Origin: a bacterium
GTDB taxonomy: Bacteria; Desulfobacterota; Desulfocorpusculales; Desulfocorpusculum
NCBI GenBank assembly: GCA_037481695.1
Contig: JBBFLE010000001.1
Coordinates: 128,989-192,988, forward strand
Direction of reading: 5' to 3'
DNA length: 64,000 nucleotides
Numbering within the stretch: position 1 is the first letter of the stretch; every line of letters begins with the position of its first letter. A program made the translations under genes and the position numbers. The notes under the pieces are model-generated. The model did no database searches. It had not been told where the DNA came from and saw nothing but the letters and a program-made list of their open reading frames with translations. Positions 20,480 to 38,542 of the stretch are shown here, in pieces.

Positions 20480-20810
20480 CGCAGCTTACCTCCTGGATAT
20501 GCTGATCGCGGCCCGCGATGCCCTAGAGTTCAGCCGCGACCTCACCTGGGAGCAATTTCAAGAGAGTTCCCTGCATCAGCATGCGATTGCCAAAGCCCTG
20601 GAAAATATCGGCGAAGCCGCGCGCAAAATCTCGGCAGAGACTCGCGCTGCACATCCCGAGATCCCGTGGGCGCAGGTCATCGCCCTGCGAAACCGGATTG
20701 CCCATGACTACTTCCACCTGAACCTGGCCGGAATATGGGACATCATCCAGCGCGAAGTTCCTGAGTTGATCGCCTTGATTGAACCGCTTGTGCCGTCGGA
20801 GGAGCCATGA
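20469..20810 (+). CDS. HepT-like HEPN toxin (DUF86)
   Basis: RNRIAHDY R-x4-HxY HEPN motif; 113 aa; 11-nt overlap with MNT. Confidence 0.8.
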
Positions 20811-20899
20811 GAACCACTCCCAATACCAAACGCCGGCTATCCCCACCTGCTCAGGCTAGCAACAACGCCAGTGAGGAATACACCCCCGGCTGGAACACC

Positions 20900-21220
20900 G
20901 GCTCGCTCTCTTGGCCTGGCTCAACAGCCAGCTCGGCTACTCAAGCAACCGCGAACTGCTGGAGGACATGAAGCAGGCCGACGAGGGCTTTGACGCTTCC
21001 GGGCGCAGTCACATCTACCATCGGCTCCTCTCGCGCGGCAGCAAGGTGCGAATCCCCCGAGGACCTGGCGCGTTACGATGACAACATCCGCGCGCACCTG
21101 GCGGCCATCAACGCCCGCCGTAGCCAGCCCATCACCCTGCTCTACTTCCAGTACCTGGCCTTCCTCTACACCGAAATCGTCCTTGCACCTAGATTTCATC
21201 TTTCACCGCCACCCAGCTGA
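20900..21220 (+). pseudogene. Frameshifted fragment of an unidentified gene (two adjacent frames: ...WLNSQLGYSSNRELLEDMKQADEGFDASGRSHIYHRLL... / ...DDNIRAHLAAINARRSQPITLLYFQYLAFLYTEIVL)
   Basis: Short ORFs without start or RBS lying between HepT and the DUF499 gene; family not recognised. Confidence 0.25.
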
Positions 21221-24200
21221 AGCTCTTCCTTTACCTTCTTCAGGATCTTGTTGGCCTCCTTAGCCGCCTCCGGCGGTGGGATTGTCTTTCCGTCTCCCAT
21301 CTCAATGCGAACAAAAAATCGGAACGGCGTATTCGCCTTGGCCTTAAGCTTCAGCAGGTCAGGAATAGCATCGCCCAGTTCCTGGATTTCAGAAGGCTCG
21401 AGCTCAGCACTCGCCATCAACACATTGGAAGGGGGTGGGGGTGGGGGCGGAGGCGGGACATCCAGCGGCACCTTGAGCTTTACAGACTGGGCCCCCGGGA
21501 AGTCGCAGGGCCAAGGACCGGATGCCTGGTCCAGCACGAGGAAGCGCGCCTGGAGAGCAGCCGTGATCACATCCCGAACGGTCTTCCACGGGAGCGTCTT
21601 ACCTGCTTTGACGGACAAGGCCGTAGCAACGGAAAGGGCCGAAGCCACACCATCTTTCCAAGCCGCCGGCAGGTTCTCCGGAAGAATCTCCGCAGCAGCG
21701 ATCACGGCTGGCGGCGGGCAGAGTTTCGACGTGGCGTTCAAGACGCCCGCCGGGATCGGCTCGCCCAGGATACTGGCTGGCCCCGAGAGCAGCCACAGCG
21801 CCCCGCTCTCAACGGCAAGGCCGATGGCCTTCTCCACCACTGCCTGCCCGGCCTTCGGAATCCGCATCGGCTCTTGGTAGCCTTCGCGTTCCACCTGCAC
21901 GACGGTCGAACCGCTGAAGTAACGGGTCACTGCGTCAACCGTGATCTCATCGGCAGACCACAGGCCCGGCAAATGTTTGGGTGCCAGGAGTGCAGGGGAA
22001 ATCTCCCCAAGCTCGGCGGCCTCCGGAAGGACGAGCTCAAGCGCCGGATCGTTCATCGCGTTCTCATCCGGCCTGGACATCCACCACGTCCGCACCGAGC
22101 CGTCGGGCCGGGTCAGCCGAAGCACGAAGGTTCCCCCCTCGCACCCGTTTGCAAGCGTGTCAAGGATGGCGCTGGAGCGAAGCATCTTCGGCAGATGCGG
22201 CAACTGCGCAAAGGCACCCGCCAGGTCCTTGACCCGCCGCGAGGTCTCGCCTGAGCGCCAGAGGTTATAAGGGCCATCGGGGAGAAGAGCCTCGGCCGTG
22301 ATGGCGGTATCCTGCACGCGCGACCGCTTATCGCTCTTGATGATGTTGAAGTGCGGGTCCTCCGTGACGGTGATCTTGAAGGCCTGCACTTCATCCTTCT
22401 CCGAGACAGTCACCACGATGCAATACGCCTGTTTGACCGCTTCGGGAATACGGGCTTTGGCCTTCTCGATGTTGATCTGGAGAGTCTCGGCCCGGGCGGG
22501 ATCGACGTTGCCGTCCTTTTGTTGCTTCTTGATCTCCTCGCGCACCTGCTCCCAGCCCAGGTAGTCGCGGGCCCTGGCCATTGCCAGCTCGAGGCCGTCG
22601 CGTGAGGGCACAAGCAGGATCACCGCGTTCCGGTAAACCCTCGGACGATCCGGCCCTGTTGTCTCGTCGATGAATCGCTTCGCCTCGGGGCTGGGCTTTC
22701 CTGATTCCGAAGCGGCGCCCGGACCCAAGACGGCGTAATGGAACGCGCCGTCATCTTCGATGTCCTTGGGCCGTGCGGGGAGCGTGTGGACACGAGCCCC
22801 CGCCGCGGAAGCGTTGGCCGTGAGAGCCTTAGTCTTGCTGATATCGTCCAGGAGTCTTGCCCGGACGACGTCCTCGGGGATATTCTTGGCGGCGATGGCA
22901 TGCATCTGCGTGAGATTGGGTCGGTTGCCCAGCCGCCACGTTGCGGGCAGTTGGCCTTCGGCCACGGCGGCGTAGAGGTCGTCGAGCCAGTAGCTCTCCT
23001 GCGCCCATCGGGCCAAGCCCTTTTGCAGCTCGATCTTGTCAGGCCTGGTAGAACCCAGAAGAACCAGGAGGTCCCGCGTTCTGGCCGTCTGACCGATAGG
23101 CTGGGAGTGAAGAAACGTCGCCACAACGGCCTGCTCTATCTCCCGGAACTTGAGACCGACCGATTCGTCCTGGATCCGTATCGCTTGGGCGAACTCGCTA
23201 TTCAGGATGCCGGTCCAGGCCTGCTTCTTCCCTTCCCACTCCTCGGTGTCGGCGACGGCGACCATCTCACGCAGCGACTCGGACAAGCCCTCGAAGCCGG
23301 GCGGGGAAAGGAACACAGCGGGCCCGATGAGCGGGCTCATGTCCCATTTTTCGGCTTGCCGGAGCGCCAAGGCGAACGTCCGCAGCACCCCGCGGGTTCG
23401 CTGGAACCGAGCGAGCTGCGTCCACTTGGAGTAAAGCACCTCGGTGAGATCGGGGTGGAATGGATAGCTCTTCAGGAACCGCTCCTCCGCCTCCGCACCC
23501 TGCTTGGCCGTCTGCTCGTCGACCCCCTGGATGCCTTTGAGGGCCGCCACCACGTGCTGGCGGAAAGATTCCCGATCCTTGAGCGACTCCGTCGTGAAGA
23601 ACCGTCGGCGCAGTACTTCGGCGATATCCTCCTTGACCACCGGTTCCACCGCTTCTTCGCGTTGCCGCTGGAAGATGTCATAGAGCTCGGCCTGGATCTC
23701 GCGGCCAAGCGTGTCGCTTTTACGCGGGTCTGTCGCCAGGAGCGACGCCACGAGGCAGCAGCGGTCCACCTTGGCCACGGCCTGCGTCAGGTACTGGAAG
23801 AAATTCACGAGCCGGGACCGCCACTCGGGATCCTGGGCGACCTTCTCGCGGGCGTACATCAAGACCTCGTCGACGAGGATCAAGGTCCCAAGCCCGTCCC
23901 TGGCTGGGAGTTCCAGGAGCTCCGCCAGGAGGTTCTCGGCGGGGGCCGAATCGCGTTCTTCCGCCTTGCCGTCGGCGTGCAGAAGCTTGAGTCCTTCATC
24001 GCCCGCGATCTGGTAGGCCAGGATGCTCCAGGGCTGCTTCAGGGTGCGCACCTTTCCCGCGGGGGAAGCGATTTCCATGCCCTTCTCGACGTCCAGCTTG
24101 TCGAAGCACAGCCCCGCCACGCGGCACTTGGGAGGCTTCTGGCCGATGGCCTGGACAAATTCCGCAACGGACGGAAGATTGGGCAGCTTGTCGGGATCGG

Positions 24201-24510
24201 TAACGAGGTGGCGAAGCGTGATCAGGGTATGGGTCTTGCCGCCCCCATAGGTGAGTTCCAACTGGCGGACGGCCTTGTCGTTCTTCCCGGCCAGCCGCAA
24301 AACCACGTCGCGCACGAGCTGGCGCAGGTTGTAGGTCGGGAAGGTAAGGGCGAAAAACTCCTCGGGCTTCTCGTAGATCGGGCGCTTGCCACGCTGCATC
24401 AGGACCTCGTAGAGGTCGGCGGCGAACATATGAAGCGGGAGTTCGCCGGAGCGCAGGTCCTCTCGCAGATTGACCACCTCGTGCCACGGCTTCCAAGGTA
24501 GCTTGGCCAT
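21196..24510 (-). CDS. DUF499 (BrxC/PglY-like) AAA+ ATPase, with a C-terminal poly-Pro linker plus ~80-aa tail
   Basis: MAKLPWKPWHEVVNLREDLRSGELPLHMFAADLYEV... plus TYGGGKTHTLITL P-loop is the canonical DUF499 N-terminus; start taken at the internal ATG 24510 (the ORF extends to 24606). Confidence 0.8.
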   Translation of the reverse strand: MAKLPWKPWHEVVNLREDLRSGELPLHMFAADLYEVLMQRGKRPIYEKPEEFFALTFPTYNLRQLVRDVVLRLAGKNDKAVRQLELTYGGGKTHTLITLRHLVTDPDKLPNLPSVAEFVQAIGQKPPKCRVAGLCFDKLDVEKGMEIASPAGKVRTLKQPWSILAYQIAGDEGLKLLHADGKAEERDSAPAENLLAELLELPARDGLGTLILVDEVLMYAREKVAQDPEWRSRLVNFFQYLTQAVAKVDRCCLVASLLATDPRKSDTLGREIQAELYDIFQRQREEAVEPVVKEDIAEVLRRRFFTTESLKDRESFRQHVVAALKGIQGVDEQTAKQGAEAEERFLKSYPFHPDLTEVLYSKWTQLARFQRTRGVLRTFALALRQAEKWDMSPLIGPAVFLSPPGFEGLSESLREMVAVADTEEWEGKKQAWTGILNSEFAQAIRIQDESVGLKFREIEQAVVATFLHSQPIGQTARTRDLLVLLGSTRPDKIELQKGLARWAQESYWLDDLYAAVAEGQLPATWRLGNRPNLTQMHAIAAKNIPEDVVRARLLDDISKTKALTANASAAGARVHTLPARPKDIEDDGAFHYAVLGPGAASESGKPSPEAKRFIDETTGPDRPRVYRNAVILLVPSRDGLELAMARARDYLGWEQVREEIKKQQKDGNVDPARAETLQINIEKAKARIPEAVKQAYCIVVTVSEKDEVQAFKITVTEDPHFNIIKSDKRSRVQDTAITAEALLPDGPYNLWRSGETSRRVKDLAGAFAQLPHLPKMLRSSAILDTLANGCEGGTFVLRLTRPDGSVRTWWMSRPDENAMNDPALELVLPEAAELGEISPALLAPKHLPGLWSADEITVDAVTRYFSGSTVVQVEREGYQEPMRIPKAGQAVVEKAIGLAVESGALWLLSGPASILGEPIPAGVLNATSKLCPPPAVIAAAEILPENLPAAWKDGVASALSVATALSVKAGKTLPWKTVRDVITAALQARFLVLDQASGPWPCDFPGAQSVKLKVPLDVPPPPPPPPPSNVLMASAELEPSEIQELGDAIPDLLKLKAKANTPFRFFVRIEMGDGKTIPPPEAAKEANKILKKVKEELQLGGGER
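21431..21457. repeat. G-tract GGGGGTGGGGGTGGGGGCGGAGGCGGG (C-strand encodes P9 in the DUF499 protein); potential G-quadruplex / slippage-prone hexamer repeat
   Basis: Read directly from the sequence. Confidence 0.7.
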
Positions 24511-24511
24511 G

Positions 24512-24889
24512 TCAATCCCCCTCTCGATCCGGTTGATATTCCCGAATGCGGTTGCGCTCGACGATCCAGAGCTTGCCTTTGATATCGTTCTGAGCAAGCC
24601 CTTCAATCAACGTACGGCAGCACGCCCAGAGGTCTTGGTCGGTCGGCTTGTGCGGAAGGCGTAAGACGGCGATGCCGCTGTATTCCCAAGGAGGGAAAAG
24701 GAAGGGATTGCTGAAGTCCAGGTCGAGCGTGACTAGACACCTACCCTCTGCCCGACAGGCGGTGATGAGCACGCGATCGCTGGCGGAGCAGAGGTTTTGC
24801 TGCGGAACGGTGGCGACGTCATGGCCCGCGGATCGGAACAGGCGTGCACCCCGTTCACCCAAGTTCTCATCGAGCTTGAGCTTCATCAT
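24512..24889 (-). CDS. DUF5615 (PIN-like, Mut7-C fold) putative toxin
   Basis: MMKLKLDENLGERGARLFRSAGHDVATV...DLDFS pattern typical of DUF5615; start at internal ATG 24889/24886. Confidence 0.65.
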   Translation of the reverse strand: MMKLKLDENLGERGARLFRSAGHDVATVPQQNLCSASDRVLITACRAEGRCLVTLDLDFSNPFLFPPWEYSGIAVLRLPHKPTDQDLWACCRTLIEGLAQNDIKGKLWIVERNRIREYQPDREGD

Positions 24890-25131
24890 TGATTCGCCGC
24901 CGGCAGCTCGACATATCGTTCGCGCGACATTTCGGCCCCATACGCAATGCAAGCTCGGATGTCGTCGTCGTCGATACCAGGGTAATTCTCGCGGATCTGA
25001 TCGAACGTCCAGCCGCTGGCCAGCAAATCCAAGATCAGCGACACCCAGATTCGGTGTCCCCGAATACAGGGCTTGCCGAAGCAAATATTCGGATCGATGG
25101 AGATGCGCTTCAACAGGTCTTCTCGGTTCAT
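24886..25131 (-). CDS. DUF433 putative antitoxin
   Basis: FGKPCIRGHRIWVSLILDLLASGWTFDQIRENYPGIDDDDIRACIAYGAE matches the DUF433 consensus; 4-nt overlaps on both sides. Confidence 0.7.
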   Translation of the reverse strand: MNREDLLKRISIDPNICFGKPCIRGHRIWVSLILDLLASGWTFDQIRENYPGIDDDDIRACIAYGAEMSRERYVELPAANQ

Positions 25132-28100
25132 GGACGATCCTCCTTGTTTGACGGAGTATCGGTGTCGTCGCCAAAAGTCAAGCCCAGCTGGCGATTTTCC
25201 TTCACCGCGCCCCTGGCCTGGACGTGGTTGCTCAGGGATTCGAGCAGGGAGCGCTCTTCGCTTCCGTGGGGCGAAAGCTCGATGAGCGACTGGAGGAGCC
25301 GCTTGAAAAGTTCTTGCCGGCGCAGTCCGTTGCCGTCGAGGTACTCGTCCACCTTGGCAAGATCGCCGGCCTTCCAGAGATGCATCAGGCGGTGCACGCG
25401 GTCGATGAGAGGGATCGGTTTCCCGGCCGGCGCCTCATAGCCAAGTGAACGTCTCTTACGCTGCGCCCACGTCTTGAGCTTCACCTTGCTCCCGGATTCC
25501 TCGAAAGTAGTAGCCGCGTCCTCGCCGCTTTCTTCCTCTTCTATCTCATCATCATCTTCAAGCGACGAGACGTCGCTTCTACTATAGCCGATGATGTCCC
25601 ACGTGTCGGCCAGCTCCTTGTCGGAGAGGCCACACGAGATCGCGTAGAGGATGCACGCGCCCGCCGGGGCTTCCTCGAGGCCGAAGTCGTGACGATGCAG
25701 AAGGTAGTAGGCGGTTGGATCGTCGAGAGTAGACGCGTCGTCTCGACGCGTATCTTCATGTTCGCTTCCACTCAGCACTCGGCCGACCACGAACTCCACG
25801 ACCATCCGCCGCACGTGGGCGAGGAACTCGCTCACCGTCATCAGGCCCGGCTCATTGGCCTTCTTGACCACGGGGTGCTTGCTGTAGGCCTCGAGCGCCG
25901 GACCCGTTGCCGCCCACACGAAGTCCGGCCCACGGATGCCCGCGTCCCAGAATTCGCGGAGCTTGGCGCGGATATTCCGACGCATCTCTTCCAGAACCTG
26001 GTTGTCCCAGCCGGGCTTCGAAAGTAGAAGCGGCGTCCCGCCGCTTTCATCCACGCGACGAGACGTCGCGTCTACGAACGTAGAAGCGGCGTCCTCGCCG
26101 CTTGAGATTACGCGATGAGACGTCGCGTCTACTCGCTTCTTGCAGACCAGCCAAACGGAGGAGGCGAGAGCAGAAGACGCCTTTGCACGCATCCTGGTGT
26201 TCATCTCCGTCTGGATGGGCCAGCTGCCGTCGACGACGAAACCCGATCGAACGAGTGCCGACACGAGGGCTTCCCATGCATCAGGCTGCTTGTTGGCGAA
26301 AACAACAACCATCTTGCCATCCGGTTTCAGTGCGTTCCTGCACGCCTGAAACGCACGCGCCATTCCCTCCTCATAAACGGCCTTCGACTTGGCCTTGTCG
26401 CCTCCGTGACGACTTGCGTCATCGATGAGTTCCCCGTCGTTTCTCTCGTGATTCCACTTGGGCGAAAGGGGGTCTCGAAATGCCCTGTCCAGGTCCAGAG
26501 AAAGACCGTTCAGCGAGCGCTTCAGCCATAGATAGAAAAAATCCATCAGATCCGAGTACGGAATCGCATCGTAGTAGGGCGGGTCCGTCACCACGGCGTC
26601 GTACTGGCCGGAACTGATCTCGAGGGCAGATCGGTTCTCCGCCACGGGCGCCTCGGCATCCGTCGAAGCGAGTAAAGCATGGTCGATACAGAGCGACACC
26701 CAGTTGAGCTGGGCGCAATACGCCGCGCCGACGACATTGATGACTGCCACCTCGGCGAAGTCCCACGTAATCGGCAAAGCGAAGCGAGTAAAGGTATTCC
26801 CGACAAACTCGCCGGAAATAACCCATCGGCAAGTCGTTGAATTGTAGTCTGCAACCTTGTCGTTGAGTATGGCTAGGTAACCTATGACAGCCTCACGCCA
26901 TTCCGACGGATAGCCAAACCGCAACATCTCAGTTGCCGCCTCCCTCGTCCACTTCACGAACGTCCCCAGCGCCAGAAGCTGGCGGGGGGTGAAGAGATCC
27001 CTCCATCGCGTGAAGCCGTAGCCGTCTACGGAAAAAGCTCGGCTTGCTCCGATTCCTCCCCTGGGAGTCGGCTCCACGGGCAACCCGAACGGAATCTGCG
27101 CGAAGAGGTCGGGCAATGCCTTCTCTGCCTGACCCGCTTTCTCTATTTCCTCTCGCTCCGGCAGCCGGTACTCCTTGCCGTCTTGTCCTTCCACGACCAC
27201 GGCGGTCATGACCGAGCCGAGACGCCCGGCCCGACCCTCCAGTCGAATGTCCTCCATCGTCATGATCGTGCCGCAGCAGGGGCACTTGGCGCCAGAGCGC
27301 GACATCGTTCCCGCCCCGAGGCGCTTGTCGTGCTCGCGGCGCTGCGCTGCGTTCCCGCCTTTTACGGGAACGTTTGTCTCGATTCCAAAGACCACAGTAG
27401 ACGCGACGTCCCGTCGCGTTGGGGCGGCACTGTCTTCCGGCTTGCCCTTGGGATTATTCCGAATGTATTGCCTGACTCGTTCCATTTGAGCAGGGCTTCT
27501 AATAATGTGGTCAAAGGATTCTTTCTGCCATACGGTTCCGCTGCGCCCCAGTTTCCTGTTGATCTCGTGCGCCGTGTAGGACTTCCATGAATGAAGGATC
27601 TCGGACAGTTCATGCCCAGCCAGGGGGGTCACCAAAGCATGGACATGGTTGGGCATCACCACATGTTCATCGAGAAGGTAGCGTTCTCCATCAAAGTGCC
27701 GCAGAGCACTTTCGACAAGTGCCTTGATTTCTGGTTTGGCAAGGATGCATTCGCCGTAACCGGCGTCTAGCCATTCCTGAAAACGTTGGGGAAAAAGTTG
27801 ATAATACTCGCGACGTGTCTTTTCGTCGTGAGGTTCAGGATGTTTCTCCTGCCACGCCTTGCGTTCCTCTTCCCATTGCAGCAACTTCTCTTGAGGCATG
27901 GAATCTGCTAGACGGAAGGTCACGAAATAGGTTGCACCGTCCTGGCGCCAATGGGGAAGGTTGCCGGAAAGGTTGCCAATGGGGGCTTCAGGATCGAAGT
28001 AATGCAGAAGCGCCGTCTCGACGCTTCTCGCACGCGGCGAGGACGCCGCGTCTACTATTACTTGCATCGTGAGGAGCACGCGCTTTTTTTCCTTCTTGCA

Positions 28101-29138: not shown

Positions 29139-29162
29139 GCATCATCCTCGCGTGCCTACTTG

Positions 29163-29663
29163 TTAGGGTCTGCCGTCCACTTCAGACATCCTGATGGCAT
29201 CGTGTCCTATAGGGAACACATATGCTGCCGCGTGCCAATCTCTATTGGGATCGCCGCCCATCAGCAGAAGTACCGGTTCGGGACACCTCATCGCATTATT
29301 GGTGGCAAATGACTTCATTTGTTCATGGTCTATTTCGCTAGGGATAGGGGCGGCCAAAGGATGGTAATGCCACTCGCCAAGGTAATACTGTTTCCGACGC
29401 CAGAGACGGTTCAAGAACGCCTGGAGACCTCGCACGCCGCGGTTGAAAAATACTCTGCCTCGTCTGGAATCTGCCGGAGGTCCAGACACATCGGTTACGA
29501 TAGCCCAATCGTGCTTGTCAGTATAGTAACCAACGAGAATTCCCCCTGTCTCCATATGCCTTGATGCCTTACAGAATGCGATTATCTTGTCCATTGTCAT
29601 TCCTTGCACAGACAGTCCAAACCGCGCATCAGGCGTTCTAAACTCAAGGGTTCTCATGTTCAT
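29163..29663 (-). CDS. cap3: CBASS Cap3-like JAB/JAMM isopeptidase
   Basis: E...HYHPLAAPIPSEID = HxH-x7-S-x2-D JAMM motif; 166 aa; directly downstream of the E1/E2 gene. Confidence 0.75.
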   Translation of the reverse strand: MNMRTLEFRTPDARFGLSVQGMTMDKIIAFCKASRHMETGGILVGYYTDKHDWAIVTDVSGPPADSRRGRVFFNRGVRGLQAFLNRLWRRKQYYLGEWHYHPLAAPIPSEIDHEQMKSFATNNAMRCPEPVLLLMGGDPNRDWHAAAYVFPIGHDAIRMSEVDGRP

Positions 29664-29665
29664 TA

Positions 29666-31555
29666 CTATTGGACCAATTTGATTCCCGGTGGGAACTCAT
29701 CCTTCTGCTCCTGTTCAAACACGCACAATCGAGGAGAACGTGGAGGATTAGTCATCCATGAATCAATGCATTTCACGGCGATGGAACTCAACAACCAGAT
29801 ATCATCCGAGCGAGCGGGAAAGACGGGGTGCCAGCATCCGAGCCCTTCGGGGGGCAACTCGAATCCCTTGTGCTCTTTCAACTCTTTGTCGAGCCACGGG
29901 GTCAGCATGGCCGAGAAATCATGATGGGGGAACCTCTCGCCACATGCCCCGAATAAAAATAACCGTCGGGCTTGAAGACCTGTCGAGATACTCACAAACA
30001 GTTTGTTGCCCTCCCAAGGAAAGGTGCTCAATCGGAAAGCAGCACGGTCATCACCAGTACAGTCGATGACGATAGTGCACTCCGCCATTTTCCGTTGCTC
30101 AACCTCAGTGGTGTTGTGCACGTATCGTCTGACCCCCTCGGCGGTAACGTGAGGAGAGATGCTGTTCAATCGGGCCGCCAACGACTCTGCTTTTGGTGTC
30201 TGTATCTCTTGGATGGAGAGCGTGTGACGACACAAGTTGCCCACTTCAAGGATGTCTCCGTCTACCACAACTATTCTCTGACAGCCTTCGCGAACGAGTA
30301 TCTCAGCCACCGAGGATCCTATAGCCCCAGCGCCAACTATCAGAACCTTGGCACCCGTTAGTGAAGATGATGCTCGGCCTCTTGTCCGTATCTGTTGCTC
30401 CGACCAGTTCCTTGAGATGATCCAGTCAATGCTGCTGCTATCCGAAAGAACGGTACGGGCGTCGTTCATTGCGAAGTTTCCCTCCTTGGGGCGAAAGCCT
30501 TTCACCTTGCCATGTGTAAGCACAGGCAGCTGGAGTGCCTGCCAGTGGTACATCGCGGGTTCGCCCCCAATGGTAGTTGGTATGGGGAAGCCGACAAGTA
30601 GAATGTGCCGTTTGCCGTCACGAAAGTCTCGAGCAAGGTCGAAGAACAGAGGATTGAAGTCAACGCCCTGTTCCTTCATTGCTGCTCGCAGTTCGCCGAA
30701 GGTTGCGGGGGCTTGCCAAGGGTGGATCACCGGTATACGAGGTAGGCGGATCCACATCGCGGAGAGTTTGCGCGCAGTCCCATGCCTTAACAAGGCTCCG
30801 TACTCCACTTCCCGAATGGTTTTTCCTCGTGCATTTGAGAAGGTGGTGACGGCATACCACGCGTTGACGCCATCAGGTTGAACCACGGTGGCAACCCCAC
30901 ATACCTCGACCGTCTCTTCCTGCCAGAACCGAAAGGAGTCCTCGTCTTCGATGAAGCCTAGTGTAGTGTGTGATCGTCGCGGAAAGTCTGGCAATTCGAA
31001 CGGTTCGCCCACCTCGGCTACTCGACCTGCTGCCGCAGCCTCTAACCACTCCTTAGCTCGCATTACGTGCCACCGCAACCGCTCTTCAGGCGAGGTGGGT
31101 TCGATATCGTAGGCCCGCCGCCCCGCGTAGCGCAGCGATGTCCGGACGCATATCTTCCCCTCTCGCCACGGGACATCAGGATTCCCCTCAGCGTTGTGTG
31201 ACTGATGGGGAAATGTGTGTTTGATCCCCCCGTCTTTGGCAGGATACAGTTCAATATCGCCCCATGGATAGTCGTCATCTGCAACGATGAACCACACCGA
31301 CTTGGCAGGAATGAGACCGGCAGGCTTTACCGTCAAACGACATCGCAGCGCCCATTTCTTGAATAGCTCATTCCACACCCAGTCTTCCAACAGTTCGCAG
31401 AAAGGGAGTCCATCCAGCGCTCGTCGTGCTCGCAACAAACTATCTGGTGGTTGGAATTTCATATTGTCAAGCAAAGCGTCCGCCTCCGATGATGGAGACA
31501 TTCTTCCTTGGCGTATACCCACCCGGCTTGTCGGGCGACTCACCGTTACCGTCAT
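29666..31555 (-). CDS. cap2: CBASS Cap2-like E2/E1 fusion (ubiquitin-conjugation-like)
   Basis: C-terminal ThiF/E1 Rossmann KVLIVGAGAIGSSVAEIL...VVVDGDILEVGNLCRH; N-terminal E2-like half; start ambiguous (ATG 31555, 31501 or 31462; the ORF runs to TTG 31591), overlapping the CD-NTase 3' end. Confidence 0.7.
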   Translation of the reverse strand: MTVTVSRPTSRVGIRQGRMSPSSEADALLDNMKFQPPDSLLRARRALDGLPFCELLEDWVWNELFKKWALRCRLTVKPAGLIPAKSVWFIVADDDYPWGDIELYPAKDGGIKHTFPHQSHNAEGNPDVPWREGKICVRTSLRYAGRRAYDIEPTSPEERLRWHVMRAKEWLEAAAAGRVAEVGEPFELPDFPRRSHTTLGFIEDEDSFRFWQEETVEVCGVATVVQPDGVNAWYAVTTFSNARGKTIREVEYGALLRHGTARKLSAMWIRLPRIPVIHPWQAPATFGELRAAMKEQGVDFNPLFFDLARDFRDGKRHILLVGFPIPTTIGGEPAMYHWQALQLPVLTHGKVKGFRPKEGNFAMNDARTVLSDSSSIDWIISRNWSEQQIRTRGRASSSLTGAKVLIVGAGAIGSSVAEILVREGCQRIVVVDGDILEVGNLCRHTLSIQEIQTPKAESLAARLNSISPHVTAEGVRRYVHNTTEVEQRKMAECTIVIDCTGDDRAAFRLSTFPWEGNKLFVSISTGLQARRLFLFGACGERFPHHDFSAMLTPWLDKELKEHKGFELPPEGLGCWHPVFPARSDDIWLLSSIAVKCIDSWMTNPPRSPRLCVFEQEQKDEFPPGIKLVQ

Positions 31556-32603
31556 CCTTCTTTGCCGGTGGGTCCGGGAACCGGTCACCAAAGAGCTGTC
31601 GCCACAGAATCACGCTCTCGTGCAGGTCTTCTTCGTTGTATGCTCGGCGGGCTAACTCGGCTGCCTCCGTGATGTGCTCGTGGAAGGCGACGAAGTCATC
31701 GGGAGACACTCGCCCTAATACATTGTGCTCTGGAACACCATGGTCAGGAACCCTTGGTGTTCGTTTCTGCTCAACATCTGTGCGGTATACGTCGCGAATG
31801 CCTTCGAGGGCTGAGACCACACCAGCGGCGACGGATTGAATACCATCCGCGCAGTTTATGCAGCAAAGGTGCTCTAGGGGATAGCTCTTGGGGTACTTTG
31901 GCTCCCGGCGTTGCGTGGTTCGCCACCATTTCAGGCACTTCACAACGTCGAGGTAGTAGCCATTGCATGCTGCATTCTTTCTTTGCGTTGCTTCAATCTG
32001 AGCCAATGGATGTGTCTTGTGCCATTCCTGTGCTTCTCGGTCAGGAATCCAGAGGGGCTCGTTTCGCCATTGTTCATCCCCCGCCTTCTCCAATATCGCG
32101 CCTAGCGATTTGCCAGACCGCCACGACAGGCTGAGCCTCCAGTCACGAGCTTCTTCCAGTGTTTGGTCGGTTGAGACGCTCGCAGACTTGACGAGCTGTT
32201 TCAGCGCCTCGCTAGGTGCGGATGTCGGCACGAGGTCCAGTTGGACATAAGATAGTTCAATGCCCCACGAGCGGCCTTGCGGCTTGTACTTGCCCTTGTA
32301 GTGCTTCTCCAAGAAGGGCCTGAAGCGTTCCAAGGCCTCACGAGGTGTGATCTTGTTTCGGTCGAGATTCGTTACGATGATAATGTCGACATCGGATTTC
32401 CTCCGGTCTTCGAACGGTCTGATCGCCGTGGAGCGCCTATAGCTGCCCTGAAGGAAGGTCGCCACAACGATGTCCTTCAAATCTTCGTCCTTGAGGAGCC
32501 GGTCCCTGAGTGTGCTGTGCCCGTTCTTACAATCCTGGACTTGGCTCTCCGTGATCCTGATGTTCCTCAAGAAATCGATGAAGTACGATGGTACATTACT
32601 CAT
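31467..32603 (-). CDS. CD-NTase (cGAS/DncV-like nucleotidyltransferase) of a type II CBASS
   Basis: GSYRRSTAIRPFEDRRKSDVDIIIV (GS...[DE]h[DE] NTase active-site motif); 378 aa; C-terminus ...IIGGGRFA; ATGA start/stop overlap with the effector gene. Confidence 0.75.
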   Translation of the reverse strand: MSNVPSYFIDFLRNIRITESQVQDCKNGHSTLRDRLLKDEDLKDIVVATFLQGSYRRSTAIRPFEDRRKSDVDIIIVTNLDRNKITPREALERFRPFLEKHYKGKYKPQGRSWGIELSYVQLDLVPTSAPSEALKQLVKSASVSTDQTLEEARDWRLSLSWRSGKSLGAILEKAGDEQWRNEPLWIPDREAQEWHKTHPLAQIEATQRKNAACNGYYLDVVKCLKWWRTTQRREPKYPKSYPLEHLCCINCADGIQSVAAGVVSALEGIRDVYRTDVEQKRTPRVPDHGVPEHNVLGRVSPDDFVAFHEHITEAAELARRAYNEEDLHESVILWRQLFGDRFPDPPAKKDDGNGESPDKPGGYTPRKNVSIIGGGRFA

Positions 32604-34171
32604 TCCATGTCCCCCTTATGTTTTCCACGCGTTCCAAAACTCGAGCCGCAACTAATAGGGACGCTGATAGACTGATAATATGCAGCACCGCCTGCATCGA
32701 GATCATGCTCGTACAGCACCAGCTTGCCGAGAACGTGCGCCAACCGCCCAAGCAGGAACATTATGCCGTTGGGGGCCGCGAAGAACACGTGCAATACGCC
32801 GCCTTGTCCGCCGCACAACTCCCTGACGGTGGCAACGAGACACTCGGCCAAGAGATGGGCATGAGTTCCATCCTTAACCGATGAGGGGCCTGCAGACGGG
32901 AGGAGGAAGTGAACGATGCTCCCGGCTGTCTTGACGTTCAGTCTCACGTACTTCAAGACGTCCTTCTCGATGTTATGTGTGGCGCTGATTGCAAGGACCG
33001 TATCCGTGGTGTTCGCCGGTTCCAGTTTGATAACGCTCACATCCCATTTCGGGTAGTGTTTCTCGATTTCGGGCGAAACGTGTGCTTTTCTCCATATATG
33101 CCGCCCTGCAAGGCTGTCCTGCACGGGCACGATGTCCACGCCAGATTTTGGGTTCAGCGCCCATCCCGCAATGAATGCGATGCTACCGTGCGTCTGGAGG
33201 CGGATATGGAATGAGCGCGAAGGCTTCACATTCACATCGAGAAAGCGAATCACCGCAGGGGCTATGATCTCATTCCACGTATTGGGTACTCTTGGAAACC
33301 GCCCGTTGAAATGGCGAAGCAGGCAGAGTGTCGCGTCGGTTTCGTCTTCAAGGTTCTCGGCATACCGCCAGAAGCTGCGGATGCCGATCCTTGTGGCATC
33401 AGGCTCTTCAATCGCCCGCCCCGCCCAGAGAGCACATTCGCGGGAGAGTTTTTCAAGGGAATCTCTTGTAAGAACTCTGTCTCCTCTTTCAATTAGTTTT
33501 CGCCCAAGATCATCGTACGGGTTTATGGGGTTGCCCGGCTGGACCGGAACGAGCCCTACCAAACGGAGGCGAAGATTTAGGTCTTCGCCCAATTTTTCCA
33601 ATGTCGGCCCCTGATGCACGCGAACAAGGCGCAGCAAACGCTGCAGTTCCTCGTCTGACCGGAGGCCTAAATGTCTCTTCCACGCCTCACGCACTTTCCC
33701 CATCCTCGACTTAGGGCCGCCTCGAGACAACACATCCCATCGCAGGCTTCCGTCGGTCAGGCTGTGAAATGCGCCCATCTCGTTGTCGGGATGGACCTGC
33801 CACGGTGAAAAGATGTTGAACCGACAGTTACAGCCTTTTGATGCGCATTTGCGTTGCGCGTTCAAAAGTCGTTGCAGAATGGATACTGAGTTGGCGTTCA
33901 CAAACGAGGGATCCATCATGTTTTGCCATGTGAAGGCCCCGTTGCTTTTAACGTGAAACTTGACTTGGTAGAAATCTGCGTGAATGGACTCACCCGCATC
34001 GGAATAGCCGCTATAACGGACCACCACGTCGTCCAGAGATTTTGCCTCATCGCTCTCAATCTCCACGCTTACAACTTTCGTCTTGTCCTCGAGCAGACGG
34101 CATGCCTGCAACCAGAAGAAACGTATCTGATAGTCGTCGCCCTGAAGCCGTGCTGCAACTGCTCTAGCCAT
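32600..34171 (-). CDS. cap4: Cap4-like CBASS effector: N-terminal DUF4297/REase-fold nuclease plus C-terminal SAVED domain
   Basis: Start at MARAVAARLQGDDYQIRFFW (GGAGG upstream; 2-nt gap after the helicase stop); D...QVK nuclease motif; C-terminus ...LHVFFAAPNGIMFLLGRL typical of SAVED. Confidence 0.6.
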   Translation of the reverse strand: MARAVAARLQGDDYQIRFFWLQACRLLEDKTKVVSVEIESDEAKSLDDVVVRYSGYSDAGESIHADFYQVKFHVKSNGAFTWQNMMDPSFVNANSVSILQRLLNAQRKCASKGCNCRFNIFSPWQVHPDNEMGAFHSLTDGSLRWDVLSRGGPKSRMGKVREAWKRHLGLRSDEELQRLLRLVRVHQGPTLEKLGEDLNLRLRLVGLVPVQPGNPINPYDDLGRKLIERGDRVLTRDSLEKLSRECALWAGRAIEEPDATRIGIRSFWRYAENLEDETDATLCLLRHFNGRFPRVPNTWNEIIAPAVIRFLDVNVKPSRSFHIRLQTHGSIAFIAGWALNPKSGVDIVPVQDSLAGRHIWRKAHVSPEIEKHYPKWDVSVIKLEPANTTDTVLAISATHNIEKDVLKYVRLNVKTAGSIVHFLLPSAGPSSVKDGTHAHLLAECLVATVRELCGGQGGVLHVFFAAPNGIMFLLGRLAHVLGKLVLYEHDLDAGGAAYYQSISVPISCGSSFGTRGKHKGDME

Positions 34172-34173
34172 AT

Positions 34174-37100
34174 TCAGCTCTCCTCCGCCTCCATGATCTG
34201 CCTTGCGCTGATCAGAACGCTCCCCTTGGCCCGGGCGAGCAGGCTCCCGAAGGGGTCCTGGACGCGCACGAGGCGTGGGTTCGAGGTGGCGCAGTCGTAG
34301 ACTACGTAGAGCCAGTAGTCCTGCCGCATGTTGCAGGCCCTGGCCCATTCATTGGCGGACACCTCGATGTCGCCGGTGCCGGCCCGGCCCTTGACCTCGA
34401 TGGCGCGTTTCTCGAAAGTAGAAGGGGCGTCCTCGCCGCTTGAAGTTACGCGACGAGACGTCGCGTCTACAGAGCGGATGGAAAGCAGGTCAAAGCCAGG
34501 GTTCTCCGGCAACCCTGCCGCACGCGCCAGCTCCGGAGTATGCACGTCCAGAACCTTCGCTCCTGCGGCTTCCTCGAAGGCCCGGGCGATTCTCATGGCG
34601 GCCAATTCCACGTTGATGTCGTGCTCCTTGATGTCTCTCGGATCAGAGGATGGCACAACCAGGGCGTGCGCGACGAAGGTAATTGGGCCAGGCGCGACCA
34701 GCTCGGGTTCTCGACGCAGCACCGCCAGGGCGTTCGATCTGCGTTGGGCAAGCTGTCTCTGCTGGCGCTTTACTTCCTCCAGCGCATCCATGGCTTTTCG
34801 GTTTCCCTTGCGAGCCTTTTCCGCGTGCCTGGTGCGGGCGGCCGCAAGTTCGGCCTCCCGGAAGTCGAAGCCGCGGCGAAGGAAGCTCTCACGCTCCGGC
34901 AGCGTGTCCAACAACCTCTTTCTGCGCTCCAATGCCATTTGGCGCGCCACTTGTTCCAGGAGAAACGCTTTCGCCTGTTCCTTCATCTTGCCGGCCTCAA
35001 CCGCCAATCGCTGCGCAGCAGGCGGGAGGCCATGACCACCTTTCAAGAGGAGGAGGTGTTCGACCGGGCAGAGCGCCACGTCGGCGTCATCGTACTGCCT
35101 CAGCCCCACCAGCCGGCATTCGAGCGTCTCTTCCTCGGTGAGTTCGGTCAGTTCCGCGTCGGGTTTTCGGATCACCGACAAGAGCGCCATGTGGAAGAGA
35201 TACGGCCTATCGGTCATGGGGTCGACGAAGACGGCGCCCCTTTGGCCTGCGTCCGCGAGGCGTTCGGAAATCAGGGCGCGGAATCGCTCGAAGACGGGCT
35301 CGCCTGGATGAAGCCAGATCACCTCTTTCGGATCTGTAGGTCTGGACACTGTCAGTTTCTCGCGGGACTTCTCCGGATAGAACTCCAGCGCGGACAAGAG
35401 CGGGTCCATCGCCCCCGTTCGCTTGGGGCGCAGGGAGAACACGCCTCCAGGATCCCCCTCGATTTCCAGACCCAAGAGCGGCGCCGCCTGCTCGATGTAC
35501 TGGCGGACGTAGCCCGGCAACAACCGGAAATACACCTCCCGCTCGAGGTTCTCTCGAAGCCGCGGGAGTTGCCTGGCGACATCTCCGCCCGAGCCGTAAA
35601 GGGACCGTTCGCGGGCGGCCAGGGCCTCCAATTGCTCCTTGGTCAGGCGGCCATCCAGTTCACGCGCCACCTCGTCGGGGTCTTCGATGACCGCAAGCTC
35701 CATGTACTTCCTGATGGAAACCCCCTGGAATATCCGCCCGATGCAATCGAAGACCTTGTCAGAGTTTAGCTCCTTCCGAATTTTCTCCATCTTGTCGAGA
35801 AGCGTCTTGAGCACCCGGCCTTCCCGGGTGGACGGCGCCACAAGGTTCAGGATGATGACCGGATCGTGCTTTTGCAGGTAGCGATGGATGCGCCCCATCC
35901 GCTGTTCGAGGCGCGCCGGGTTCCACGGCACGTCGTAGTTGATCATGATCCAGCAGAACTGGAGGTTGATCCCCTCGCCCGCCGCGTCCGTGCATACCAG
36001 AAACCGTGCGCCGCCCTCATGAGACGCCTTGCGGAAGCGCTCCACTTCTTCTTCACGCTGGGTAAAGTGCATGCCGCCGTGGATCTGGGCCACCTGCCCC
36101 GTGTAGCCCATCCCGATGAGGCGCTTGACCAAGAAGTCCAGCGTGTCCCGGTGCTCCGTGAACACGATGAACTTCTCGTCACCGAATTTAGGGTCGGTCA
36201 GGATTTCCCTAAGCTTCTCGAACTTGGACTCCTGGCCTAGGTCGTAGACCTGCCTCGCCAACGCGAGCAACTTTTGGACCTGCTCCCGTTCGGCCAACAG
36301 ATCCGCCAGCGAAGCGGCGACCACCCCCTGGAGCAACTTGTCCTCGGCAAGCTCGTTTTCCTCGCGACCTTCCGCCGGGCTTTCATCATCAGCGGTCTTG
36401 TTATCGAGGACGTCGTCTGTCTCATGGATGCGTTGCTGCAGGGTCACGAGCTGCTCGACGTTCAGTTCGCCGTCCTGCACGGCCTCAATGAGTCCTTCGA
36501 GCTTTTCAATCCGGCGCTCGAAGGATCGCAGGAGCGCCCAAGTTGAGCTGGCCAGCCTCCGCTGGAACACGCCCATGGCCAGCCGCGCTGCCTCCCGGTT
36601 CAGGAGCTTCGCCTTATTGTAGACGAACCGAAGGTAGTCTGTGGTCTCGTCGTATAGGGTCTGTTCGCTGATCGGGCCCTGGGATAGTTCATAGCCGAGC
36701 GTGTCTGAGATCCGCTTCGGGAAAAGAGGCCTGCCGTCGAGGTAGACCATCTCCTCCTTGGTGCGGCGAATGAAATGGCTCGCGCGGTGTTCCGCCGGGA
36801 ACTCGTTGAACGCTTCCGGAGTGGACAGCACGTCGGGTTCAAGGAGCCGCCACAGCGCGTAGTAGGGGTAGTCCTTGCCCATGTGGGGCGTGGCGGTGAG
36901 CAAGAGGAGATGATGGGCGCACCAGCCCAGACTCCATTGATCATCGAGATCGCGCACTCCCGCCAGGGCCTCCGCCAAGCAGTAGCGGTCTGTCTTGCGC
37001 ACCCGCATGTCGTTGCCGCGATCTGCGGACAGTTTGTGTGCCTCGTCAAAGACGACGAGATCGTAGGGGATGACATCGGGTTCCTTGAGGCGGGCAAAGA

Positions 37101-37791
37101 CCCTGGGGCTGGAGAGCGTGTCCAAGCTGACGATGATCCGGTCGCTGTCATCGCCTTTGAACGGGTTGTCGTTACGGGCGTCTGATCCGCTCACGATTCG
37201 GAAGACCAGGTTGAAAAGCGTCGCCAGTTCATGCCGCCAGTTTCCGACTAGCCCCGCCGGGGTGACGATCAGGACTCGACGCAGGAGCCGTCGGGAGAGC
37301 ATCTCGCGGAGGTAGAGCCCGGTCATGATCGTCTTCCCCGCGCCGGCATCGTCGGCCAAGAGGAAGCGGAGCCGGGCTTGCTTGAGCATGTGCTCGTAGA
37401 CGGCGATGCGCTGGTGAGGCAGCGGATCGATGCAGGAGATCTCGGTGGCAAAGGCGGGATTCATGAGGTGGCCGAAGGAAAGCCGTTCACCCTCGGCCAG
37501 CACCTTCACAATCTCGGGCGGGGCGGTGAAGTCCAGTATCGGTGGTGCGCCCCCGTAGGAGTGTTGCTCCGGCTCGGCGACCTTGCTTCGAGTGTCCAGT
37601 TCCGCCTCCAGCTGTCGTAGGCGGGCCCAGCAGATTTTCGATGGCTTGACCTTGCCGTTCTCCCAACGATTTACGGTAGGAAATGATACGCCGACCGCCT
37701 CAGCGAGCGCGACCTGGGTCAGTCCTAAGCGTGCCCGCAAGGCTTTTATCCTGCGAGGGTAATCGTCTCCTGGCGTTGAAGTCATAGCCAT
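34174..37791 (-). CDS. XRE-family HTH fused to SNF2/COG0553 helicase with C-terminal DUF3883-like domain
   Basis: LGLTQVALAEAVGVSFPTVNRWENG HTH; DDAGAGKT (motif I), VVFDEAHKL (II), LLLTATP (III), QRMGRIHRYLQ (VI); C-terminal EVKGRAGTGDIEVSANEW...YWLYVV; start at MAMTST. Confidence 0.8.
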   Translation of the reverse strand: MAMTSTPGDDYPRRIKALRARLGLTQVALAEAVGVSFPTVNRWENGKVKPSKICWARLRQLEAELDTRSKVAEPEQHSYGGAPPILDFTAPPEIVKVLAEGERLSFGHLMNPAFATEISCIDPLPHQRIAVYEHMLKQARLRFLLADDAGAGKTIMTGLYLREMLSRRLLRRVLIVTPAGLVGNWRHELATLFNLVFRIVSGSDARNDNPFKGDDSDRIIVSLDTLSSPRVFARLKEPDVIPYDLVVFDEAHKLSADRGNDMRVRKTDRYCLAEALAGVRDLDDQWSLGWCAHHLLLLTATPHMGKDYPYYALWRLLEPDVLSTPEAFNEFPAEHRASHFIRRTKEEMVYLDGRPLFPKRISDTLGYELSQGPISEQTLYDETTDYLRFVYNKAKLLNREAARLAMGVFQRRLASSTWALLRSFERRIEKLEGLIEAVQDGELNVEQLVTLQQRIHETDDVLDNKTADDESPAEGREENELAEDKLLQGVVAASLADLLAEREQVQKLLALARQVYDLGQESKFEKLREILTDPKFGDEKFIVFTEHRDTLDFLVKRLIGMGYTGQVAQIHGGMHFTQREEEVERFRKASHEGGARFLVCTDAAGEGINLQFCWIMINYDVPWNPARLEQRMGRIHRYLQKHDPVIILNLVAPSTREGRVLKTLLDKMEKIRKELNSDKVFDCIGRIFQGVSIRKYMELAVIEDPDEVARELDGRLTKEQLEALAARERSLYGSGGDVARQLPRLRENLEREVYFRLLPGYVRQYIEQAAPLLGLEIEGDPGGVFSLRPKRTGAMDPLLSALEFYPEKSREKLTVSRPTDPKEVIWLHPGEPVFERFRALISERLADAGQRGAVFVDPMTDRPYLFHMALLSVIRKPDAELTELTEEETLECRLVGLRQYDDADVALCPVEHLLLLKGGHGLPPAAQRLAVEAGKMKEQAKAFLLEQVARQMALERRKRLLDTLPERESFLRRGFDFREAELAAARTRHAEKARKGNRKAMDALEEVKRQQRQLAQRRSNALAVLRREPELVAPGPITFVAHALVVPSSDPRDIKEHDINVELAAMRIARAFEEAAGAKVLDVHTPELARAAGLPENPGFDLLSIRSVDATSRRVTSSGEDAPSTFEKRAIEVKGRAGTGDIEVSANEWARACNMRQDYWLYVVYDCATSNPRLVRVQDPFGSLLARAKGSVLISARQIMEAEES
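34418..34470. repeat. REP doublet (REPIN) in frame in the helicase, between the helicase core and the DUF3883-like domain (encodes SVDATSRRVTSSGEDAPSTF)
   Basis: GTAGAAGGGGCG-tcct-CGCCGCTT/gaagtt/ACGCGACG-aga-CGTCGCGTCTAC; same family as the copies in the methyltransferase. Confidence 0.75.
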
Positions 37792-37823
37792 GGTATTCTC
37801 ATCGCCGAGTGACAATATAAAAA

Positions 37824-37852
37824 ATTATATCATATGCAATAGTGAGTGTCAA
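37824..37852 (-). promoter_or_regulatory. Consensus sigma70 promoter TTGACA-N17-TATAAT driving the helicase/CBASS/MTase/ATPase gene string
   Basis: Minus-strand reading TTGACActcactattgcatatgaTATAAT, about 30 nt upstream of the helicase start; AT-rich with ATATAA/TTATAT inverted repeat. Confidence 0.55.
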
Positions 37853-38149
37853 ACTATCACACGATGGGAGGCATTTGCGCTGTTAAGGTTTTGGGAGGCC
37901 TGGTCAATGCGCGGAGAGGTTTGCACGGCGGGTTGGGGCCGGCAGATGTCACAGCTGGAGGCCCAAAAGCTTTTGCTACAGGCTCACTTTGGCGCTCTGA
38001 GCATTTTCACTCCTGGTTTCAAAAACACCACCCCCCGCTGCTTCTCGATCTGCCTCCCACCTTGCAACAACTACGCTGCCTTGCGTGACTTGGGGCTCCA
38101 AACCAAAGAACGCATTTGCTCCTTACGATTGCTCTCGACCACCCCTACC

Positions 38150-38526: not shown

Positions 38527-38542
38527 AAGCTGTATGGCGCTC

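Follow-up and report, generated by a model that had tools for sequence, protein, structure and literature searches.

A Hma defence locus with a nested type II CBASS cassette and a REP-associated transposase domain within its methylase gene

When a complete abortive-infection system lies between the genes of another defence system, do the two work as one machine, do they merely adjoin, or is one of them the cargo of the other? This question is raised by nine co-directional open reading frames (ORFs; minus strand, positions 21196-37815) in a stretch of contig JBBFLE010000001.1 from a Desulfocorpusculum bacterium; the whole 64-kb stretch that was analysed is called the window here. A sequence-only reading of the window had described the nine genes as an operon of a DUF499 ATPase, a DUF1156 methylase and an SNF2 helicase, resembling a restriction-modification (R-M) system, into which a complete type II CBASS (cyclic oligonucleotide-based antiphage signalling system) and a toxin-antitoxin pair had been inserted. 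Following up that description, we consider it probable that the locus combines an R-M-like first line, the Hma system, with an autonomous CBASS layer and a toxin-antitoxin-like pair, all co-transcribed from one promoter. Two features had gone unnoticed: a Y1_Tnp domain of the REP-associated tyrosine transposase (RAYT) type inside the methylase, and a series of hairpin repeats (REP, repetitive extragenic palindrome).

The nine-gene locus and its promoter

On its profile matches, the helicase-methylase-ATPase trio is the published Hma system, which is Type-1 BREX-related. The name Hma dates from Payne et al. 2021 (PMC8565338), and the trio was re-described in 2026 as a Type-1 DUF499-centred, BREX-related, R-M-like system in which DUF499 is a BrxC-like ATPase (NAR 2026, PMC12839542). 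The sequence-only reading was therefore right about an R-M-like trio with a link to BrxC, according to both the PADLOC Hma models and the 2026 description. Each hma gene is present once, on one strand and in the order A-B-C, so that the three proteins, their order and their strand are those of the Type-1 BREX-related systems. The PADLOC HmaA match (1.2e-152) extends across residues 95-1173, and Pfam finds Helicase_C (8e-24), SNF2-rel_dom, NOV_C (8.5e-14) and HTH_3 in the same protein. All three elements of the nuclease active site, D, ExK and E, are kept (GFDLLS, IEVKG and ANEW); in Halomonas HmaA these residues are required for nickase activity and for defence. HmaB is recognized by PADLOC (6e-110) in two stretches separated by an insert and by Pfam as DUF1156 (1.2e-17). 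Its methylase motifs I (DPFAGGG, aa 134) and IV (DPPYY, aa 852) are intact, and its length of 1336 aa compares with about 1070-1110 aa in ordinary homologues. HmaC matches PADLOC HmaC (3.4e-72), Pfam DUF499 (3.5e-21) and, below the equivalog cut-off, NCBIfam DUF499_antiphage (3.3e-24). In contrast to about half of the Type-1 BREX-related systems, a domain profile search detected no N-terminal HEPN domain in HmaC. A poly-proline linker of nine prolines (aa 1019-1027, positions 21430-21456) connects the main part of HmaC with a small domain at its C-terminus.

Homology identifies the four genes that separate hmaA from hmaB as a complete type II CBASS, as the sequence-only reading had proposed, and more precisely as one of the CdnD type known from Enterobacter cloacae. 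In addition to the PADLOC matches listed in Table 1, the Cap4 effector carries a Pfam SAVED domain (1.9e-24) and matches the Cap4 structure 7YIB (8e-73). The CD-NTase retains the active-site pattern GS...DVD...D (GS at aa 53, DVD at aa 71) and matches the cyclic AMP-AMP-GMP synthase CdnD of E. cloacae (PDB 7LJL/7D48) at 1.3e-105. Compared with the E. cloacae CdnD CBASS (PDB 7LJL, 7TO3, 7YIB), the gene set is the same, with four clear homologues; the differences are the gene order, which is cap4-cdnD-cap2-cap3 in the window, and the position of the cassette, which is embedded in another system and lacks an upstream region of its own. Between hmaB and hmaC lie two further genes, small, co-oriented and overlapping, that code for DUF433 and DUF5615 proteins. 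They have the anatomy of a toxin and its antitoxin, so that the toxin-antitoxin pair of the sequence-only reading stands as a putative one. PADLOC has no model for this pair; in the rest of the region it names Hma and type II CBASS.

The genes follow one another in the order hmaA-cap4-CD-NTase-cap2-cap3-hmaB-DUF433-DUF5615-hmaC. Their junctions, read off the sequence, range from -8 to +24 nt and agree with gene calls made independently on an identical public contig (L004). The Shine-Dalgarno sequence of cap4 (GGAGGAG) is located within the 3' end of hmaA. For hmaA itself, a start at ATG 37791 was adopted; TTG 37815 and ATG 37785 are alternatives, the latter being the L004 call. In a consensus scan of 18 kb (20500-38600), the sigma-70 site in front of hmaA was the sole one to match the consensus at all 12 positions. 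The same scan showed no excess of promoter-like sites (5 seen, 4.6 expected) or terminator-like sites (15 seen, 16.2 expected), and no promoter-like site in the 3' end of hmaA. These observations suggest that all nine genes are likely co-transcribed from the single promoter 5' of hmaA. The gene order, coordinates and tight junctions of the sequence-only reading were confirmed, as were its consensus promoter and every domain that it had named (SNF2, SAVED, SMODS, ThiF, Prok-JAB, DUF1156, DUF433, DUF5615 and DUF499, all by Pfam); its phrase 'transcriptionally fused' is best taken as a reading of the anatomy. The base composition of the modules differs: GC content is 0.51-0.55 in the CBASS genes, 0.60-0.63 in the hma genes and 0.56 in the remaining window, and GC at third codon positions (GC3) is 0.53-0.65 and 0.72-0.78 in the CBASS and hma genes, respectively.

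Table 1. Positions in the window of the genes, domains, repeats and junctions of the locus (strand - is the minus strand)
Feature	Position	Strand	Description
Sigma-70 promoter	37824-37852	-	TTGACA-17 nt-TATAAT with upstream TG; 12/12 consensus; ~30 nt 5' of hmaA start
hmaA	34174-37791	-	HTH_3 (N-terminal), SNF2 helicase, C-terminal NOV_C PD-(D/E)xK nuclease
REP doublet (REPIN-like) in hmaA	34418-34470		In frame; HmaA aa ~1107-1126; adds 17 aa between nuclease D (GFDLLS) and ExK (IEVKG)
Junction hmaA/cap4	hmaA stop 34174, cap4 ATG 34171		Gap 2 nt
cap4	32600-34171	-	Endonuclease-SAVED effector; PADLOC effector/endonuclease 3.6e-154
Junction cap4/CD-NTase	32600-32603		ATGA overlap
CD-NTase (CdnD type)	31467-32603	-	PADLOC cyclase 1.1e-151; Pfam SMODS 1e-27
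Junction CD-NTase/cap2	cap2 start TTG 31474 or ATG 31462		Overlap 8 nt with TTG; gap 4 nt with ATG
cap2	29666-31474	-	E1/E2 fusion; PADLOC E1-E2 6.6e-208; Pfam ThiF; PDB Cap2 7TO3_A 8e-101
Junction cap2/cap3	cap2 stop 29666, cap3 ATG 29663		Gap 2 nt
cap3	29163-29663	-	JAB isopeptidase; PADLOC JAB 1.9e-49; Pfam Prok-JAB; NCBIfam Cap3 3e-12
Junction cap3/hmaB	cap3 stop 29163, hmaB ATG 29138		Gap 24 nt
hmaB	25128-29138	-	DUF1156 N6-adenine methylase (predicted), 1336 aa
RAYT domain in hmaB	27438-28007	-	HUH Y1 transposase-like, in frame; aa 378-567, 190 aa
Strict REPs in hmaB	Starts 25560, 25729, 26024, 26053, 26080, 26110, 27397, 28032, 28313, 28339, 28506		Span including weaker copies 25506-28528
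Junction hmaB/DUF433			Overlap 4 nt
DUF433 gene	24886-25131	-	Putative antitoxin, 81 aa; Pfam DUF433 3.5e-26
Junction DUF433/DUF5615			Overlap 4 nt
DUF5615 gene	24512-24889	-	Putative toxin (PIN-like), 125 aa; Pfam DUF5615 2.3e-19, PIN_10 4.5e-5
Junction DUF5615/hmaC	DUF5615 stop 24512, hmaC ATG 24510		Gap 1 nt
hmaC	21196-24510	-	DUF499 ATPase; stop at 21196

At the upstream border of the island are housekeeping genes and a fragment of IstB, the helper ATPase of IS21 (78 aa, 38290-38526, plus strand, Pfam 1.2e-7), just upstream of the promoter; this fragment may have been left behind when the island was acquired. At the other edge, an MNT (NTP_transf_2)/HepT-like pair (20162-20810, plus strand) is convergent with hmaC and forms a second module of the toxin-antitoxin type. 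Next to it, a 123-aa ORF (19708-20079, plus strand) matches the C-terminal part of N6_N4_Mtase only (profile positions 144-205 of 221) and is probably the remnant of a truncated DNA methylase.

Cargo at the hma junctions of related loci

The sequence-only reading implied that the nesting of a second defence system was new. This is not the case, since embedding in Hma systems is already published: 931 of 1,485 systems (62.7%) carried embedded genes, 22.8% of which belonged to known systems (Payne 2024, bioRxiv 10.1101/2024.01.29.577857), and a second study found insertions in 66.5% of Hma systems and described the region as a hotspot for insertions (Liu et al. 2024, PMC11232893). The locus shares with these descriptions of 'guilt by embedding' the co-oriented defence genes in both junctions and a cargo that differs among close relatives. 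The published examples are Septu, PARIS, Ppl, GmrSD-like proteins and ABC-ATPase pairs, whereas the window holds a four-gene type II CBASS. The Payne 2024 survey was limited to three genes per slot, and neither CBASS nor DUF433 is named in its text and supplements. The layout of defence genes between hma genes is thus already documented, and the four-gene CBASS extends the list of known cargo modestly. A comparable nesting of a second, different defence inside a methylation-based system is the BREX locus of pEFER with its embedded BrxU, as far as it is described where Payne 2024 cites it; there the second line is a type IV restriction enzyme, as opposed to abortive infection by cyclic oligonucleotides in the window.

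We compared the window with related Hma systems in 80 loci from species-representative genomes, calling the hmaA-hmaB junction slot 1 and the hmaB-hmaC junction slot 2. Cargo of more than 1 kb was present in slot 1 in 50 of 66 cases and in slot 2 in 44 of 74. The nearest HmaB homologues have different cassettes at the same two junctions, namely SLFN_AlbA_2/HATPase_c_4 with CbiA, AAA_14/DUF4143, AAA_15/AAA_21 pairs and DUF1016. Among the 115 ORFs in slot 1, defence-type Pfam families included AAA_21/AAA_15, SLFN_AlbA_2, SIR2, Zeta toxin, NYN, TIR and SMODS. The last of these was found in two ORFs. One, in a metagenome-assembled genome (MAG) of Verrucomicrobiota (L051), belongs to a locus with the layout of the window, hmaA-cap4-cdnD-cap2-cap3-hmaB, with junctions of 4 and 2 nt, CBASS proteins that are 55-73% identical to those of the window and, as in the window, markedly lower GC and GC3 in the CBASS genes than in the hma genes. 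The other, in a Bacillota MAG (L040, 8524-9977, plus strand), is part of a two-gene, type I-like CBASS module made up of a 310-aa SMODS protein and a 170-aa protein for which no family match was found. In slot 2, the DUF433/DUF5615 pair recurs in a Nitrospiraceae MAG (L009).

The comparison of neighbourhoods was extended to the loci of the nearest CD-NTase homologues. Two of them (L122 and L125) proved to be further embedded cassettes, while three cassettes were free-standing (L121, L123 and L124, the latter in another defence island), with CD-NTases 77-78% identical to that of the window and no hma genes nearby. CBASS is accordingly rare yet recurrent as Hma cargo. Since the same cassette is also found free-standing, it represents modular cargo rather than a mechanistic fusion. 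Moreover, the Hma proteins of L125 are 63-78% identical to those of the window (74-78% for HmaA, the N-terminus of HmaB and HmaC), and its CBASS proteins only 45-59%, indicating that the CBASS was captured separately and entered slot 1 more than once. The free-standing cassettes have a spacer of 179-387 nt upstream of cap4, whereas embedded cap4 genes start 2-4 nt from hmaA in the window, L051 and L122, and are called as overlapping it in L125. Our own reading is that the cassette is self-sufficient, was captured without its promoter and is expressed by read-through from hmaA.

Alternatively, the modules could be mere neighbours: the Hma junctions would be recombination hotspots and each insert would retain an internal promoter, with no co-regulation at the level of the operon. 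That the same cassette is autonomous elsewhere, that its composition is unlike that of the hma genes, and that weak or non-sigma-70 promoters escape a consensus scan would all be compatible with this. It is difficult to reconcile, however, with the loss of the spacer from every embedded cassette, with the clean 3' end of hmaA in the scan, and with the co-orientation of embedded genes in 96.7% of cases (Payne 2024, bioRxiv 10.1101/2024.01.29.577857), and we regard it as distinctly improbable.

A functional coupling of the two systems, in which the activity or failure of Hma triggers CdnD or methylation by HmaB shields host DNA from Cap4, appears highly unlikely. CdnD-type CBASS does occupy slot 1 of at least four loci, in two cassette lineages, and its junctions are tight; on the other hand, slot-1 cargo is mostly unrelated to CBASS, and close homologues of the cassette are free-standing without hma genes. 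Cap4 is not known to be sensitive to methylation. The suggestion in the sequence-only reading that the methylase might protect the cell from the CBASS effector is not supported, because L121, L123 and L124 manage without the methylase. If anything, the nuclease of HmaA itself is the more fitting target of any protection by HmaB.

A RAYT domain and REP hairpins in hmaB and hmaA

The insert that divides HmaB is a RAYT domain. The segment is recognized as Y1_Tnp by Pfam (1.4e-7) and as REP_Tyr_transpos by NCBIfam (5.6e-20; 71.7 bits, under the equivalog cut-off of 80), and it contains both an HUH motif (NHVH, aa 497-500) and the tyrosine, within QYIRNNP (aa 557-563). Neither the HVH residues nor the tyrosine of YIxxNP varies among 20 fusion proteins. 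In an AlphaFold (AF2) model, the core of the domain has pLDDT values of 67-94, mostly 83-94, and its flanks are disordered. The best match of the model in the PDB is 4ER8_A, E. coli TnpA-REP bound to a REP hairpin (E 9e-5); a search of the PDB with the RAYT segment by sequence gave no match, so this link needed the predicted structure.

Fusions of DUF1156 with Y1_Tnp occur in more than 20 protein clusters as full-length ORFs of 1270-1420 aa that are 54-71% identical, and in one lineage the identity of the RAYT domain reaches 89%. The MAGs from which they come are labelled Syntrophaceae, Deltaproteobacteria, Nitrospiraceae, Gemmatimonas, Latescibacterota and Lentisphaeria. The HmaB-RAYT fusion is therefore old and recurrent, and we rejected the idea that the insert is a recent disruptive event, because the fusion has been kept as an intact ORF in all of these clusters. 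RAYTs have also become associated with hmaB independently: in P0015 and P0073 the domain lies at another position in HmaB than in the clade of the window, P0020 has a different, shorter RAYT, and in a Deltaproteobacteria MAG (L073) a stand-alone RAYT ORF of 198 aa (3125-3718, plus strand) occupies slot 1 directly 5' of hmaB, with REPs of a distinct family (GTAGGGGCGG...) at 3413 and 3676. A different insertion was seen in the HmaB homologue P0034, which has a GIY-YIG nuclease domain (PF01541) in frame near its N-terminus (alignment columns ~170-262). HmaB thus seems to tolerate or attract insertions of nuclease domains. The RAYT domain was also considered as the agent of cassette exchange at the two slots; this was rejected, since the slots are equally full in the ~70 loci that lack a RAYT.

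The REP is a 23-nt element consisting of GTAG and an 8-bp stem with a loop of 3-4 nt (consensus GTAGACGCGACGTCCCGTCGCGT; sequence form GTAG+ACGCGACG-TCC-CGTCGCGT). Thirteen strict, GTAG-tagged copies are present in the window, 11 in hmaB and 2 in hmaA, every one of them in frame, compared with a chance expectation of 0.03-0.13; there are none in the remaining ~56 kb. Weaker copies in hmaB are likewise in frame. The elements fold as predicted (z -2.7 to -4.6), and variants of the stem are compensatory. The majority form inverted doublets (28313/28339, 26024/26053, 26080/26110 and 34418/34448), and copies are found on both sides of the RAYT domain (28004-28055 and 27397-27419). Some of the insertions are specific to a lineage. 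A double REPIN adds 34 aa to HmaB in the window only (26019-26134). The REPIN in hmaA, which falls in the loop between two active-site strands of the NOV_C nuclease, is missing in four homologues with 76-77% identity across the C-terminal part that was aligned, and in L107 and L110 REPs occur at another site in hmaA.

In nine non-redundant RAYT-bearing loci, 49 strict REPs were found in 39 kb of hmaB as opposed to 5 in 156 kb of flanking DNA, 2 of these 5 lying just past hmaB; hmaB genes without a RAYT had essentially none. At orthologous sites, nucleotide identity was 79-84% in REP columns, 68-73% in other coding columns and 40-50% at third codon positions, and the peptides encoded by the REPs fall in variable loops, two of them, beside the RAYT domain, being predicted to be disordered. 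The hairpins are therefore conserved as nucleic acid. Their positions were nearly all stable, apart from one partial deletion, in the close pairs L001/L114 and L107/L110 (83-89% nucleotide identity), so that mobility of the REPs is indicated by the lineage-specific inserts only. The exact REP is not exclusive to Hma loci, as hma genes were absent from 16 of the 33 metagenome stretches with an exact 23-nt match (L088-L120). REPs outside Hma loci are often doublets, sometimes within long stop-free frames; of ten such frames submitted to Pfam, two gave matches, to TPR repeats and to a 3-keto-disaccharide hydrolase.

Stand-alone RAYTs that are 60-70% identical to the domain are abundant in Kiritimatiellae, Hydrogenedentes, Verrucomicrobiota and Planctomycetes. 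Together with the REPs beyond Hma loci, they make it likely that the element originated as a conventional REP-RAYT element from a genome of this kind. Several stand-alone RAYTs among P0249, P0256, P0272, P0275, P0316, P0335 and P0357 bear the JGI label 'type I restriction enzyme R subunit', and in P0348 a Methylase_S (HsdS) domain is combined with Y1_Tnp. These cases hint at further fusions of the family, into type I R-M genes, and the label may reflect fusions to HsdR. Taken together, the two RAYT sites in HmaB, the association in L073, the GIY-YIG domain, the Methylase_S combination and the JGI labels point to a wider affinity of RAYTs for genes of the R-M type.

REPIN-RAYT systems are regarded as vertically inherited, extragenic and genome-wide. 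The element in the window resembles them in its HUH and tyrosine motifs, in its palindrome of GTAG and an 8-bp stem, and in REPs that flank the RAYT and are mostly inverted doublets (E. coli TnpA-REP, PDB 4ER8; Di Nocera 2013, PMC3733652). Intragenic, in-frame palindromes are likewise known from other species, as GTAG REPs and as the palindromic elements of Rickettsia. The element differs in three respects: its RAYT is a domain translated as part of a defence methylase and not a stand-alone gene; its REPs, judged on the 64-kb window and the nine RAYT-bearing loci, are confined to hmaB and hmaA and are neither extragenic nor dispersed; and the HmaB-RAYT unit travels between phyla along with the defence system. 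With its RAYT domain and REP hairpins, this HmaB stands apart from the Type-1 BREX-related systems as described. Neither feature is mentioned in PMC8565338 or PMC12839542, and our searches of open-access text turned up no description of a defence methylase that has a RAYT domain fused into it and REPs restricted to the host genes.

These features raise the possibility that the HmaB-RAYT fusions constitute an undescribed, gene-confined REPIN-RAYT system, with an HUH transposase as a methylase domain, REPs selected as DNA or RNA, in-frame insertion restricted to hma genes, and spread between phyla with the defence system. We put this forward tentatively and think it unlikely as a whole. In its strongest version, the HUH domain could have been co-opted as an additional single-strand-DNA nuclease or sensor; another form of co-option could be the generation of in-frame variants of the methylase and of the helicase-nuclease. 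Our preferred view is that the RAYT/REP element is a selfish passenger whose presence in loops is tolerated; co-option is possible.

Proposed layered defence and a probable passenger

In the layered reading that we prefer, HmaB would methylate host DNA, HmaC, as a BrxC-like DUF499 ATPase, would scan or sense DNA, and HmaA, a Snf2 helicase with a PD-(D/E)xK nickase, would attack foreign DNA; these roles are taken from the literature on the family. The promoter-less CBASS in slot 1 would form a second layer, for which E. cloacae provides the model: CdnD would make a cyclic trinucleotide, probably cAAG to judge from its homology to the E. cloacae enzyme, Cap2 would prime CdnD, Cap3 would reverse the priming, and Cap4 would degrade DNA and bring about abortive infection. 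The DUF433/DUF5615 pair in slot 2 would be a further layer. The three modules would be mechanistically independent layers that share their regulation and are transferred jointly, and it can be speculated that the N-terminal HTH of HmaA is autoregulatory. The REP-RAYT element would have colonised hmaB and be translated as part of the methylase, its hairpins persisting and occasionally multiplying in frame. Layered or co-regulated defence was already proposed in the sequence-only reading, and the literature offers the same interpretation for embedded systems (Payne 2024, bioRxiv 10.1101/2024.01.29.577857).

Several points weigh against this reading. The consensus scan is blind to weak or non-sigma-70 promoters, so the locus may have weak internal promoters. 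The DUF433/DUF5615 pair is a putative type II toxin-antitoxin-like pair on the strength of its domains and gene layout. In the sole Hma system that has been tested, that of Halomonas, HmaA alone defended, and phage pre-grown on a host expressing HmaB infected unchanged (PMC11232893); a division of labour as in R-M systems thus cannot be taken for granted. Finally, the 17-aa REPIN insert might impair the nuclease of HmaA. An extension of this last point, that the Hma scaffold is a decaying relic in which RAYT/REP insertions have inactivated HmaB and/or HmaA and the cargo alone functions, is the least probable of all: thirteen hairpins derived from a mobile element and a foreign domain of 190 aa do lie in two genes, one insert being within the active-site hairpin of the nuclease, but every reading frame is intact, methylase motifs I and IV and the nuclease D/ExK/E are present, the REP peptides sit in variable or disordered loops, and HmaB with its RAYT is conserved at full length across the fusion clusters.

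The locus neatly illustrates a rule already published for Hma (BREX-related) systems, the carriage of further defences between their genes, and in this respect its value is confirmatory. It is of moderate interest, mainly on account of the recurrent four-gene CBASS cargo and of the undescribed passenger, the in-frame RAYT/REP element. As recurrent Hma cargo, four-gene type II CBASS cassettes lie beyond the three-gene limit of the survey, and since such cassettes lose their upstream region when embedded, the locus provides a good test bed for the co-regulation of first-line and abortive-infection defence. The passenger could matter more, as it places REPIN-RAYT within the ORFs of a defence operon that moves horizontally. 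With one protein and about a dozen hairpins, it offers a compact setting for tests of RAYT activity in cis, and the HmaB-RAYT fusion can be used to ask whether such nucleases are domesticated by defence genes.

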